DNA of 61,342 nt, counting the filler, from Archaeoglobus sp. JdFR-37 (GTDB lineage Archaea > Halobacteriota > Archaeoglobi > Archaeoglobales > Archaeoglobaceae): assembly GCA_002010215.1 (NCBI GenBank). It is 5 parts of 5 records of this genome, joined end to end, with 100 filler letters (N's around TTAATTAATTAA, not from the genome) between each part and the next. Parts side by side here need not be neighbours in the genome. Positions count along the whole stretch, not along the records: positions 40,109 to 52,393 come from MTMY01000023.1; positions 52,494 to 61,342 come from MTMY01000013.1; 3 more parts are not named here. The stretch is one strand, 5' to 3'. The position numbers were made by a program. How positions within the stretch are numbered: the first letter of the stretch is position 1; each line of letters begins with the position of its first letter. Below, piece after piece: positions 51,001 through 61,342 of the stretch.

Positions 51001-54000
51001 ACCAATATTATACTGTAAAAGGCGTAAAATGGCCACCCGAATATCATTGGCTCTATTTTTGTCGAAACAAACGAAGCTAGGGGCAGGTACAGTAAGATCA
51101 GTGCAATCACACCAGCACTCATTAGGCGTCTTTTTCTTTTGTACTCTTCTATAATGTCTCTATATTTTTCAAAATCCAATTCCACCAAGTCCACCATAGA
51201 GACACCTCGATTCTTAATGTTAAAACACACATATTTAAAATTTACCATAAGTAATTGTGGTTTCCTAATAGTGAACAATAAGAAGACGTCTAAATGTTAA
51301 AAGACAGATGACTAAAATTATAAATTATATTCAATTAAAAAGCTAGTTATAAATCCCAACTTTAGCAATATGGACCTACTGTTTTAGGTATTCTCTCTAA
51401 CCTTTCATCACGGGGTTTGTATCCAAGCGCTTTGGAGATCTTCATAGCGTATTCTCTCACCAAGTCTGTATATTCTTGGATTTTTTCATCAGTAAATCTG
51501 GTGGATGGCCCAGAAATGCTGATTGATGCAATAACTTTTCCAGTATGGTCTCTGATAGGTGCACCCACACATTTGAGACCAATCTCCACCTCTTCATTAT
51601 CTAATGCATAACCCCTTTCACGTATCCTTCTCAGTTCTTCCTTCAATTTCTTGGGATCAGTAATTGTGTTTTCCGTGAATCTGGTTAGCGGCTTACTTAT
51701 TATCTCATTGACTTTTTCCTCCGGCAAATGGGCGAGGAGCGCTTTACCAACTGCCCCTGTATGCAGAGGCAGTCTCTTTCCGATCTGAGAATACATCCGA
51801 ATAGCCCTTGGACTGTCAATCTTCTCGATGTATACTCCCTCTCCATCCCTTTCGACCATCAAGTGGACCGTCTCATTACAAATTCTGGCAAGCTCTTCTA
51901 AATACGGTCTGGCAACCTTTCTCAACTCCAGATTCTCCAAGATCACTCCACTCAATTCCAGAATTTTAATTCCAAGTCTGTACTTCTTTGTGGTTGGGTC
52001 TCTCTCAACCAGTCTGAGGTGTTCAAGAGTATTCAGATATTTATAGGCAGAACTTTTTCCGATTTTTAGCCTTTCCGTGATTTCTGTAAGACTCATTTCG
52101 TGTTTCTCGGTGAAAAGGAATAAAATTTCCATGGCTTTTTTTACACTGCCAATTTGGGTCTCGTTTTTTCCCATACTTAGAACTTAATTTCTTGAATTTA
52201 AAAATTTGATGTTGTTAATTTAGATTATGGGTAACAAATCTGGTTGAAATCTGATCTAACAAAATAAATTAGGGAGTAATCGGGGAACGTAAGAAGAACA
52301 CCCATAAGAGGAAGATTTTTCTCTACATCCGCATCATAAAAGGGACGGACTTCGCAGATATTGCAAGGTACGTCCGCATTTCACATACAAATCNNNNNNN
52401 NNNNNNNNNNNNNNNNNNNNNNNNNNNNNNNNNNNNNTTAATTAATTAANNNNNNNNNNNNNNNNNNNNNNNNNNNNNNNNNNNNNNNNNNNNTCCTCCC
52501 AGCCAACCGCATATACCCCGTCATCCCTCTCCTCAATCTTTATTACAGGAAGGGGCTTCGGAGGAGGCCCGGCAACAACCTCTCCAGTCTCGGGATCATA
52601 CAACCCGATATGGCACGGACATATCAGGAGGTCGTCCTCAGTGAGTTCCGCAGATACTATGCATCCCAGATGAGTGCATATGGCCCCATACGCATGGTAG
52701 CCCGAAGGAGTCCGGACAATCAACGCCGCTTTACCCATGAAATTGAAATGTTTAGCCTCCCATACATTGAGCTTTTCTCCTTTTTCGAGGACCTTGACTT
52801 CACCTGAAGCAACACCTCCTGAACCGCTTGGCCATAGGTACCTGACAAGTATGCCTGCAAGATCAATAGCAAGTACAGCACCGAAAATTCCACCAATAAC
52901 TCTTAAGAAAGCCCTCCTTTTCATCTCACTCCTCCTCCAGAACGGTCACAAATTCGTCATCGAGCAGCCCTTTAACGTAGGTGTAAACAGCGGCCGCTCC
53001 GGTGAAGAAAATTCCTGAAAGAGTCATACCCACCTTTATACTCATCTCATACGGTTCGAGGGGCTGGGTGAGCAGATAAAGAAGGTAAAGGCTAAGGATA
53101 ATTGCTACAGCCACTTCAACTATGAGAGCAAGACTTCCAATTCTTATGGCCTTGTCACTTCTCTCCACCCTCTCAATTTTTTCGATAATCATGCTCTCAC
53201 ACCCCCATTTCAAAGCCTCCAGTATCTCACAATCAGGAGCATGGCCAGGATTATGACAACAACAGCCCCTCCCACATTCCAGGTAGGCATATGAATTCCG
53301 AGTTCTTTGTACTCTTTCTCCGCTCCAGGTGCTCCAGGTGTTGCTACGGATTGTGTAGGCTGACCACTTAACGAATCTATATATGCTGCAAGTTCATTCA
53401 ACTCCTTTTCACTCAAACTCAATGGGCTGCCGGGGGGCATTCTTCCACTTTTGACAGCATCTTTGGCCGCGGCCCCATTTCCTCCTACATTAAAATTCTC
53501 TCCTTTTTTCCCGTGGCAACCCTCACAGTATTGCACGTAGAGCTCCTCTCCTCTGCTTTTCACTTCTCTCGGTTTCTCCACATAACCCTCAAAGGAGTGG
53601 TTGTGCTGGAGGTAGTACTTACCCCGCTCGTTCAGTCTGGTATAGTCTCCTGACACATGACAGAAAGGACAGTTTCTACTCTCTTTAGCTCCGTACTCGG
53701 GAGTTCCAGAGGAGGTGGGAAGGAAAATCAGAAGGAGGGCGAGCAAGAAAGCCAGTATTCCAATTTTTCCAATTTTTCTCATTTTACAGCCCTCCTGATG
53801 AGTAGTGCTGCAAGCAGAGCAATGGACAGGATAATCGCCTCAAACCCAGGAGTGGGTTTGGTCTCTTTTTCAATCCCAATCAGACTTTTGACGGCATCAA
53901 TTTCTGCTTCGAGCCTCTCTAGGTTGAATTCATGCCATGTAACTGGGAAAGCATTAAGTATTTGTTCTGCCTTTTTTACGTTCTCTCCATCCTTTCCTTC

Positions 54001-60000: not shown

Positions 60001-61342
60001 AATAAAAACTACAAGAATTAAAATAAAAAGAGCTAAAGCACGAACTACATGTTTCATTCAGGTACCCCCGAAAATCTCCCTGAAAAATAAAACTGGGGAA
60101 TTACCCGGAGACCTCTTCTTTCTCCTCGACTCCTAGGAATGCCTGTACAGCCATCACAGTAAGAGTGCCAACTGTGAGCAGCAGGATGACGCTGATGCTG
60201 CTGAAGGCTATGATGGCTCCGAAGAAGCCCATGTTACCGTAGATAGCATCTAGCAGCACAACACCAATAACAGGGAAGACTGCTGCCAGAGTTAGAACAC
60301 TGAGAATCTCCCACTGTTTTAGATATCCAACCAGCAAATTCAGTATCGCACCGATTATACCCACGGCCACGAAAACCATAACGAGGTCGGCCATTTTAAT
60401 CACCCCCAGTGTTTACTACTACTTTATCATTTATAAAACCATATCGGTTATTCTATAATAATTTGTAACTTATTTTTTTGTAAACTATTATATTGACATT
60501 CAGTTGAGAATTAGGAATGCCGCCTAAACTTTTCCGGTAAGTTAAAAAATAATTTTCGATTATTTCTCCTTTAAAAGGCAAATTAGGGGTGAATTACCGA
60601 TAATTATTGATGTTAATTTGAGATCAGCACGAATTAAGCACAAATCTCGAAAAATTTAACTACTGAATGTTTCCCCCCTCAGATGTGGTTGCTATGCCAG
60701 CAGTGGATGTCGAAAAACGGGTTGCTGATACTCCCGATAAATTGTGGAAATTTCTATTCATGTTGATTTTTGCAGTAATAGCTATTATGGGACTTCAGAT
60801 GCTCGGATTCTGGGTATGGGTGACAAGCTCAAAGGCCATACCATTTACTGAAGCTATGGGCTATGTGGTAGCATCCTTGTTGGCTTTGATAGTGGGGGCT
60901 GTAGGGCTTTTCATGGTTTATTTATGGAAGTCCTAAGGGAAGCCTTAAGGTTTAGACTTTAGCTTTAAGCTTTTTTAAGGCTTAAATTTCATTTTGGATT
61001 ACTTACTCTTAGGTAATTTTAACCTAAACTAAAATTTACAATGATGCAAAATCCCGTATAAGCAATGCAGCAAAAAAGGCAGTAAAAAAGCTGCTCGACC
61101 ATGCAAAGGTCCGTTCCCAGTATATACCTGGAACCAGCGAAGCGCTCCGGCACGGGCTTTAGTGACCGCGGGCTGAACGGCTCGGTTGCCCTTGCCGCTT
61201 ACACCCCGGCCCTATCAAACGGGTCTTTTACCCGCGCCCTTATGGGCGGCTCTTTTCGGGGGCGGTTTCAGGCTTAGATGCTTTCAGCCTTTAACCGCGT
61301 GGCGCGTAGCTGCCCGGCAGTGCCCTGCCGGACAACCGGTAG

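Follow-up and report, generated by a model that had tools for sequence, protein, structure and literature searches.

The window analysed here is a stretch of 61,342 nucleotides from Archaeoglobus sp. JdFR-37 (G000; other G and L labels denote the further genomes and sequence records compared). Positions 52494..60403, at the left end of contig C42, hold most of a respiratory gene cluster that continues, from cytochrome b6 onward, on contig C29, for which contig coordinates are used. The cluster has 17 genes, all co-directional. Those named in a preliminary description were all recovered in place on the minus strand, and two absent from its gene list were added, namely a ~53-aa gene located behind subunit IV and, at the head of module 1, the gene for a 100-aa membrane protein. 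The stretch that opens with the first 4-haem gene and closes with the last NrfD measures 11,458 bp (11.5 kb), not 17 kb as first given. The features are:

52494..52555, no strand: 62 nt shared with the end of C29 (identical contig ends)
52494..52713, no strand: collapsed two-copy tract, Rieske 3' part, common to a second Rieske gene absent from the assembly
52494..52924, minus: Rieske 2Fe-2S protein, residues 1-143 (PF00355, alignments); last 12 residues on C29
52926..53192, minus: two-helix protein, 88 aa, without a known family (listed ORF starts at 53213)
53210..53782, minus: dihaem c1-like subunit (PF13442; alignment)
53779..54636, minus: hexahaem cytochrome A, opening the bc unit; 5 CxxCH + 1 CxxxCH and a PGF-CTERM-like anchor
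54667..54683, minus: BRE/TATA-like box before hexahaem A, kept in G054 and L008
54756..55694, minus: hexahaem cytochrome B (5 CxxCH + 1 CxxxCH), helical tail, PGF-CTERM-like anchor
55727..55750, minus: BRE/TATA-like box ahead of hexahaem B, the first of the hexahaem genes; identical in G000 and G054
55769..56647, minus: 12-haem cytochrome, NapC/NrfH-like N-terminus
56691..57692, minus: 10-haem cytochrome, module 1 partner (Cytochrom_NNT above cut-off)
57670..58860, minus: NrfD1, NrfD-family membrane subunit (PF03916, 97 bits, cut-off 25.8)
58861..59583, minus: NrfC1, NrfC-like 4Fe-4S protein, twin-arginine start (Pfam Fer4_11)
59596..60057, minus: c4A, 4-haem cytochrome c of module 1, anchored at its N-terminus (4 CxxCH)
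60101..60403, minus: 100-aa membrane protein with 3 predicted helices; opens module 1
C29 20739-21410, minus, outside the window: cytochrome b6
C29 20335-20739, minus, outside the window: subunit IV
C29 ~20193-20354, minus, outside the window: ~53-aa eighth gene
C29 ~20042-20059, minus, outside the window: TATA-like box
C29 19541-19993, minus, outside the window: 4-haem cytochrome c (c4B), module 2
C29 18773-19537, minus, outside the window: NrfC2
C29 17564-18772, minus, outside the window: NrfD2

The centre of the cluster is a Rieske/cytochrome b complex of the split type: PF00033, PF00032 and PF00355 are all matched above cut-off by a four-helix cytochrome b, a three-helix subunit IV and the Rieske protein, the adjacency of b6 and subunit IV to the Rieske gene holds across the contig join, and the best solved-structure matches are again b6 and subunit IV. 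The haem bL/bH ligands of b6 (H93, H107, H194 and H209) are invariant in 9/9 aligned rows, as is Cys42 of the CxGG motif defined for haem ci/cn (PMC5600118), which here reads C42-L-G-G; Cys42, Gly44 and Gly45 are further invariant in 60/60 sequences. Subunit IV carries the quinol-oxidation motif P53-E54-W55-Y56 (invariant, 8/8) and an invariant Glu16, a candidate haem ci ligand that aligns one residue off Phe40 of b6f. The Rieske protein has a twin-arginine start and the CTHLGC and CPCH boxes; relative to b6f, Gly replaces Ser, as in PDB 1NYK, and Tyr is kept. Loss of this Ser lowers the potential (PMC12954380). Judged by these residues the complex looks menaquinol-adapted. For most Rieske/cytochrome b subfamilies Q-cycling is unproven (PMC5600118).

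In a FastTree phylogeny of 60 b6 rows the protein clusters with the Methanoperedens-type clade (support 0.94); under midpoint rooting the Archaeoglobi are sister to this clade and not inside it; no donor of the bc unit can be named. Orthologues of the complex occur in 3/96 class genomes, a count that leaves out b6-like matches in G045 and a second one in G054, which proved to be a long fused cytochrome b of a different complex (38-43% identity). Among the 92 Archaeoglobaceae genomes searched it is present in G000 and G054. Our search found no experimental structure of a Methanoperedens/Polytropus-type bc complex.

The Rieske gene has a twin. In 4/4 sequencing runs its 3' part assembles as a contig of its own, with 1.5-1.9x the depth of the adjoining one, and in 2/4 runs another contig, which carries a different Rieske 5' part, connects to it at 52684-52768. 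The collapsed tract stops at the Rieske stop codon, and G092 carries two Rieske genes. There is thus a second Rieske gene whose 3' end has apparently been homogenised; a literature search on gene conversion between Rieske paralogues returned nothing relevant.

Two small proteins and a c1-like subunit complete the core. The 88-aa protein has 249 homologues, those with a taxon name being from Methanoperedens or uncultured archaea (32-36% identity to Methanoperedens-type copies), and weak profile matches to it, with E about 1e-4, turned up in family f10 (8 genomes). A predicted complex of this protein with b6 and subunit IV scores 0.76, as against 0.01 for the best of three controls; the modelled protein docks on helix 1 of subunit IV, with at least 94% of contacts agreeing between runs and partner pLDDT of at least 84. 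The score mark that the model passes is reached by 116/157 solved pairs and 2/215 mismatched pairs, counts that are only roughly valid here, and the likeness of b6 and subunit IV to solved b6f may have contributed to the pass. On this modelling the 88-aa protein is likely a small subunit of the bc complex. The ~53-aa eighth gene is homologous to a Methanoperedens hypothetical (hhalign probability 96.9). The dihaem subunit corresponds to the monohaem Methanoperedens protein into which a class I cytochrome c domain has been inserted: an insert of ~70 residues with the second CxxCH is present in 3/3 Archaeoglobi rows and 0/4 others.

Both proteins previously counted as 5-haem cytochromes have an additional CxxxCH, conserved in 15/16 aligned homologues. 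The CxxCH motifs of the cluster do number 42 (4, 10, 12, 5, 5, 2, 4), as noted before; with the two CxxxCH motifs the likely haem sites become 44. Hexahaem A occurs in 3/96 class genomes and is 37-44% identical to Methanoperedens-type copies. Both proteins bear a PGF motif (PF18204 at 18.0 bits against a cut-off of 18.8 in A; no match listed for B), and archaeosortase A (TIGR04125) is above cut-off in G000. No fold is claimed for hexahaem A, because its model is of low confidence (pLDDT 59.7, pTM 0.38), Foldseek gave no match at E<=0.001, and a profile search of solved sequences yielded only a weak multihaem-like match and designed repeats.

The flanking genes form two cytochrome-NrfC-NrfD modules. 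PF03916 is above cut-off for both NrfD proteins, and the 4Fe-4S subunits have Fer4 matches and twin-arginine starts (read from sequence). The models for NrfD, TtrC, QrcD and DsrP all stay under cut-off, the best NCBIfam match of NrfC1 is TtrB, also under cut-off, and NrfD2 has no solved-structure match by sequence search. Only NrfC2 passes one equivalog model (DsrO, 213.7 against 200); dsrA scores under its cut-off in G000, a genome 94.5% complete. A search of the cluster for the catalytic partners of NrfABCD, Ttr, Psr, Qrc or Dsr systems found neither NrfA nor a molybdo-subunit. The 100-aa protein, for which no Pfam or NCBIfam match was found, heads the c4-NrfC-NrfD-c10 unit in 4/4 relative loci holding NrfD1 (L062, L064, L066, L067; 52-65% identity), and in the same 4/4 loci the 10-haem gene follows NrfD1; orthologues of NrfD1 are present in 10/96 class genomes. 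The 12-haem gene comes after NrfD2 in 3/6 module 2 loci of relatives and in L018. The 10-haem protein combines an N-terminal cysteine knuckle, one helix and a NapC/NrfH-like domain (NrfH 2J7A match, E 4e-5). Both it and the 12-haem protein match Cytochrom_NNT above cut-off and TIGR03153 under it, and CxxCHxM of haem 1 aligns with NrfH. The Lys and Asp quinol residues are not evidently kept in either. What had been called a duplicated module is a pair of old paralogues (NrfD 36-37%, c4A and c4B 35% identical); a local duplication was rejected, as both modules have nearer orthologues in other genera than each other.

The description of the cluster as one operon is contradicted by promoter-like boxes conserved ahead of three internal genes. 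Hexahaem A is the first gene of its unit in L008, where its box is kept, and the box at 54667..54683 is probably the promoter of the bc operon; the box before c4B recurs in G036, where c4B heads its unit. The boxes were judged by eye in 2-3 genomes with AT-rich spacers, and on them several transcription units are most likely, although read-through of the 17 co-directional genes could still yield one long mRNA.

We favour, at a probability of roughly 0.78, the reading that this respiratory gene island encodes three independent menaquinol-oxidising machines in about four transcription units, the bc complex and the two NrfCD modules being parallel exits from one quinone pool. The genes, ligands, orthology, synteny and independent occurrence of the modules are observed; we infer the transcription units, the direction of electron flow, the Q cycle and the acceptors. 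The eight-gene Methanoperedens-type complex would consist of b6, subunit IV, Rieske, the dihaem c1-like protein, a pair of small subunits with two helices each, and either one or two hexahaem cytochromes held by a lipid anchor. Menaquinol would be oxidised at the PEWY site, with a Q cycle via haems bL, bH and ci, while the low-potential Rieske protein would hand the other electron to the dihaem subunit and, on the outer side of the membrane, to the hexahaem cytochromes, which would deliver it to high-potential acceptors, namely the NorB-type NO reductase with its c-type partners and metal oxides. The two NrfCD modules with their 10- and 12-haem partners would take electrons from menaquinol without bifurcating them and pass them to surface cytochromes, the three machines thereby serving acceptors of different potential. 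For the modules Fe(III) is most likely the acceptor, judging from gene content and the literature on relatives. The NorB-type enzyme is not a fixed partner of the bc complex, because it is found in 1/3 bc-bearing class genomes and two genomes have it without b6. The earlier proposal of quinone-linked membrane modules feeding surface multihaem cytochromes is supported. Its cytochrome-c-dependent Nar is not: the nitrate reductase operon is NarGHJI-K, and since it has its own NarI-like subunit and NarG lacks a twin-arginine start, the enzyme does not depend on cytochrome c.

Two alternatives concern the layout itself. The ends of C29 and C42 do share an exact 62-nt overlap with no other copy in the assembly, across which the Rieske frame continues, but the earlier statement that it lies in a single-copy gene fails, the 3' Rieske part being a collapsed two-copy repeat by contig depth and the second 5' arm. 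The argument that the overlap is unique and the join hence safe was dropped once this was seen, and because the overlap crosses a repeat the contigs alone cannot prove the join. The Rieske 5' arm of C42 could then derive from another locus, with the second copy preceding b6: no listed piece spans the repeat, and the G054 assembly is broken in the same gene. Against this, hypothetical, Rieske and b6 genes lie on one contig in G092, L008 and five Methanoperedens-type loci, and the same hypothetical gene precedes the Rieske of C42, so that a wrong join is highly improbable and the join is supported by synteny. The single supercomplex proposed earlier, in which the bc complex, both modules and all cytochromes would make one wire from one operon, draws on the shared direction of the genes, seen also in G054 (on two contigs), and on the bc unit adjoining module 2 in three arrangements across lineages; this adjacency, seen in G000, G054, L008 and L009, may reflect a functional tie. 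We nevertheless hold it to be unlikely: the modules stand alone in b6-less genomes (module 1 orthologues are found in 8 other genomes, 0/8 with a b6 match), the upstream NrfCD module of L008 belongs to another subfamily (NrfD 26-28% identical) on the opposite strand, the internal boxes are conserved, and no NrfD is among the matches listed for five Methanoperedens-type loci (L010-L013, L088), of which L010 ends just past subunit IV.

The other two concern how the machines work. Unlikely too is a modular bc complex of eight subunits that can take either of two Rieske proteins; gene conversion would hold the 3' ends of the two genes, which encode a conserved C-terminal extension, identical and so let both proteins fit one core, and a functional coupling to NrfCD module 2 would send hexahaem electrons outward or back to the quinone pool. 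Some modules might instead run in reverse, with extracellular Fe(II) or another donor reducing menaquinone through multihaem cytochromes and NrfCD (Qrc/Nhc-like), or with the bc complex working uphill, and nitrate as sink via NarGHI. NrfD-family complexes operate both ways (PMC8076601), narG is present in 3/3 bc-bearing class genomes, and Ferroglobus couples Fe(II) oxidation to nitrate (PMC4429474). However, two complete genomes that lack a narG match, G039 and G041, carry both NrfCD modules, orthologous Methanoperedens clusters are expressed in metal-oxide reduction (PMC7082337), and orthologous b6 is absent from 6/9 narG genomes; we regard reverse flow as unlikely and retain the three parallel quinol-oxidising machines.

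The cluster gives a compact map of possible quinol-electron routing to surface cytochromes in an archaeon, and it adds the Archaeoglobaceae to the families in which a Methanoperedens/Polytropus-type bc complex occurs. Both the system as a whole and the reading given to it have been published before; what this analysis adds is the eighth gene, the model of the 88-aa protein on subunit IV, the dihaem c1-like subunit and the twin Rieske. All of these except the dihaem subunit offer concrete, testable points.

With cytochrome b6f and the menaquinol:cytochrome c reductases of Firmicutes the complex shares the split b6/subunit IV, CxGG for haem ci, PEWY and a Tat-exported Rieske protein, whereas here there is no cytochrome f, the acceptors are dihaem and hexahaem cytochromes and the small subunits lack a family match. 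Much closer is a Methanoperedens cluster of Rieske and cytochrome b6 genes (Arshad 2015, Leu 2020; MPEBLZ_00816-00823, PMC4683180; group 1, PMC7327174), with the same eight genes in the same order, the same ligands, b6 62-67% and subunit IV 59-64% identical, both small hypotheticals homologous and a pair of 6-haem cytochromes next to the bc genes. The order from hexahaem genes to subunit IV matches these clusters, and hexahaem-hexahaem-c1-hypothetical-Rieske-b6-subunit IV recurs in L009, L010, L011, L013 and L088. Unlike there, the c1-like subunit has two haems instead of one and a second Rieske gene exists, and in the tree the hexahaem pair is not one-to-one with the Methanoperedens pair. Cytochrome-NrfC-NrfD sets without a molybdo-subunit likewise occur in Methanoperedenaceae clusters of NrfD, 4Fe-4S and multihaem proteins (groups 4/5, PMC7327174; PMC7082337) and stand alone in genera g11 and g12; NrfD of module 2 is 75-77% identical to the stand-alone copies and 50% to that of L009. 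In contrast to these, the modules here lie around a bc unit and the 12-haem gene has shifted behind module 1.

The bc link, presented earlier as new, has a precedent in Archaeoglobi: Boyd et al. 2019 (PMC6474303), the relevant paper that our literature search returned for this cluster (PMC4600277 makes no mention of NrfD), describes in Ca. Polytropus marinifundus (Fig. 3d) three contiguous operons with a bc1-like complex of Rieske and cytochrome b, two more membrane complexes and multihaem cytochromes. The supplement numbering (202 MHC, 206-207 cytochrome b, 208 MHC, 211-212 NrfH-like MHC) agrees with the order of genes in L008, and the core proteins of L008 share 63-90% identity with those of G000. 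Compared with that arrangement, the units here are all co-directional, there are two hexahaem genes where it has one, and the upstream module is of the NrfD1 type in place of a divergent NrfD.

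The island, in which two NrfCD modules flank a bc unit, is real, well conserved and of an already described kind, and is best read as three parallel quinol-oxidising machines (probability about 0.78). Of the five contigs that make up the window, with N spacers between them, the analysed DNA was contig C42 (window 52494-61342), with the remaining part of the claimed operon on contig C29 (locus L001). All genes lie on the minus strand at the positions of the preliminary description, whose family matches and sum of 42 CxxCH motifs were reproduced; its length of 17 kb reduces to a measured span of 11,458 bp, or 11,804 bp with the 100-aa lead gene. 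Both '5-haem' proteins carry an extra CxxxCH that 15 of 16 homologues share, and PMC7327174 counts their Methanoperedens copies as 6-haem. Further features of C42 are:

57590-57670, minus: N-terminal CxxC...CxxC knuckle ahead of a membrane helix in the 10-haem protein, likewise in loci L008 and L016; it may bind a metal on the cytoplasmic side
60667-60936, plus: gene for an 89-aa two-helix protein, facing away from the island and probably part of the 12-haem unit since its homologues come after the 12-haem gene in L018, L063, L065 and L067
61120-61342: contig end, resembling by eye the 3' end of a 23S rRNA gene

Elsewhere in the genome, two large multihaem genes with 16 and 15 CxxCH (C15:1-2255 and C27:1-2297) share terminal sequence at contig ends, which is another collapsed repeat.

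Intergenic gaps within units run from -4 to 43 bp. Three larger ones (74, 119 and 341 bp) are all AT-rich, and each holds a BRE/TATA-like box, judged by eye against the consensus and conserved in a related locus. The box ahead of hexahaem A recurs in L008, an Archaeoglobi record whose gene order fits that of Ca. Polytropus, where hexahaem A opens its unit, and that ahead of c4B recurs in L008 and the related genome G036. Because these gaps hold conserved boxes, the sequence points to about four transcription units.

The flanking modules are independent of the bc unit. Of 96 Archaeoglobi genomes, 3 have orthologues of b6 and of hexahaem A, leaving out a fourth b6 match, a fused, distant cytochrome b; NrfD1 has orthologues in 10 of the 96 and NrfD2 has close relatives (E < 1e-170) in 13. 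In the nine loci retrieved, a complete module 1 (100-aa gene, c4, NrfC, NrfD, 10-haem) is seen in four and module 2 in six, three of these six having the 12-haem gene after it. One genome, G042, has both modules in tandem and lacks a b6 match. The upstream module of L008 has a different NrfD subfamily on the opposite strand, and module 2 of L009 is divergent from the bc unit; thus the neighbourhood recurs without its order and strand being kept. That the whole set forms one supercomplex, as first proposed, we consider improbable, and we retain the reading of three parallel machines.

The genome encodes cytochrome c assembly genes, an archaeosortase A and 21 ORFs with at least two CxxCH; dsrA gave no match over the cut-off. 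Its nitrate reductase comprises NarG-H-J-I with a NarK-like transporter. Since it includes a NarI-like subunit (score 104.8, just under the cut-off of 105.55) and its NarG has no twin-arginine start, it should take electrons directly from quinol, despite a dihaem cytochrome gene ahead of narG. A COX1-family protein with NorB-like motifs and monohaem neighbours would be a better cytochrome-c sink than the nitrate reductase, but it is confined to 3 of the 96 genomes, two of them without b6. Beside the nar operon (L074:2081-5845, contig C3) lies a NorB-like haem-copper oxidase unit whose genes include one resembling haem O synthase and one for a monohaem cytochrome with a PGF anchor. The sister species G054 has no NorB-like match and a stronger COX1-family match (L070, contig C1; E 4e-94), possibly an oxygen reductase. 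narG is present in nine of the 96 genomes, including all three with the bc unit. Both NrfCD modules are found in complete genomes lacking narG, a pattern consistent with metal reduction; in Methanoperedens, orthologous clusters are expressed during Mn(IV) reduction (PMC7082337).

The final 62 bases of C29 equal the initial 62 of C42 and have no further copy in the assembly; the Rieske reading frame continues through them and gives a 155-aa protein. The overlap alone is no proof of the proposed join, as the Rieske 3' part forms a separate piece of raised depth in contigs from four public runs of three studies (108.6 vs 58, 137.2 vs 78.2, 71.6 vs 48.6 and 13.6 vs 8.3, depth not being equal to copy number). 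One of these runs, X1, may have supplied the present DNA. The join is supported by synteny, because the hypothetical gene, Rieske, b6 and subunit IV stay together on one contig in G092 (with an intact, 84% identical Rieske), in L008 and in Methanoperedens-type loci. In runs X1 and X2 a second contig with a different Rieske 5' arm, possibly from a co-occurring strain, meets the 3' piece at window 52684-52768; the 259-nt shared piece runs as far as the stop codon of the Rieske gene. The two Rieske genes of G092 show about 80 differences in the first 389 compared bases and none in the last 79 (third positions: 54 of 128 vs 0 in the tail). Its second copy (L090, L093) stands alone, with a divergent 258-aa gene on one side and a 296-aa gene on the other. 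The G054 assembly also breaks within its Rieske gene. We infer that the present genome has a second Rieske gene, traced at window 52494-52768 and missing from the assembly, and that gene conversion homogenises the two copies; as alleles of their shared tract vary between runs, this conversion may be recurrent.

The cofactor ligands of the bc complex are all intact, and the Rieske protein has Gly where a potential-raising Ser would stand, as would be expected for menaquinol use. In a complex model the 88-aa hypothetical protein docks against helix 1 of subunit IV and a b6 loop, scoring 0.76 (best of three controls 0.01), though b6 and subunit IV are similar to b6f of known structure; 116 of 157 solved and 2 of 215 mismatched pairs score as high as the mark, and these counts are only roughly valid in this case. 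At least 94% of contacts are the same between runs, partner pLDDT is at least 84, and the model supports, short of showing, such binding. A record titled Woesearchaeota (L014:5668-9667) has Rieske-b6-subunit IV beside a 10+1-haem protein, a hexahaem-family relative, and two NrfD genes. A long cytochrome b of fused type (343 aa, 38-39% identity) occurs in L005 and L006 (genomes G045 and G054), where the gene listing shows no Rieske gene alongside.

The bc core is a known cluster. Its order, hexahaem-hexahaem-c1-like-hypothetical-Rieske-b6-subunit IV, is found in L009, L010, L011, L013 and L088; L012 agrees save for the monohaem gene, absent from the scripted gene listing. Arshad et al. (2015; PMC4683180) describe a set of eight genes expressed together, coding for Rieske, cytochrome b, a cytochrome c, a pair of pentahaem cytochromes and two hypothetical proteins. 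The second hypothetical had been overlooked here: a two-helix frame of about 53 aa overlapping the 3' end of subunit IV (L001:18674-18835, minus), 75-83% identical across three Archaeoglobi loci and homologous to a small Methanoperedens-type gene (hhalign probability 96.9). It has no clear ATG ahead of the conserved part; the start position reads ATG in L007 and ACG in this genome and L008, with TTG or CTG ten codons downstream, and a non-AUG start is possible. Leu et al. (2020; PMC7327174) term the cluster a non-canonical bc1/b6f complex and mention homologues in Archaeoglobi. Boyd et al. (2019; PMC6474303) give Ca. Polytropus three contiguous operons: one encodes a bc1-like complex that includes Rieske and cytochrome b and may perform a Q cycle, the other two encode further membrane complexes with multihaem cytochromes, and the gene numbers in the supplement match the gene order of L008. 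The whole island, not just the bc core, is in print in that source, to which the present analysis adds the eighth gene, a model of one small subunit, the dihaem form of the c1-like subunit, the co-directional arrangement and the twin Rieske.
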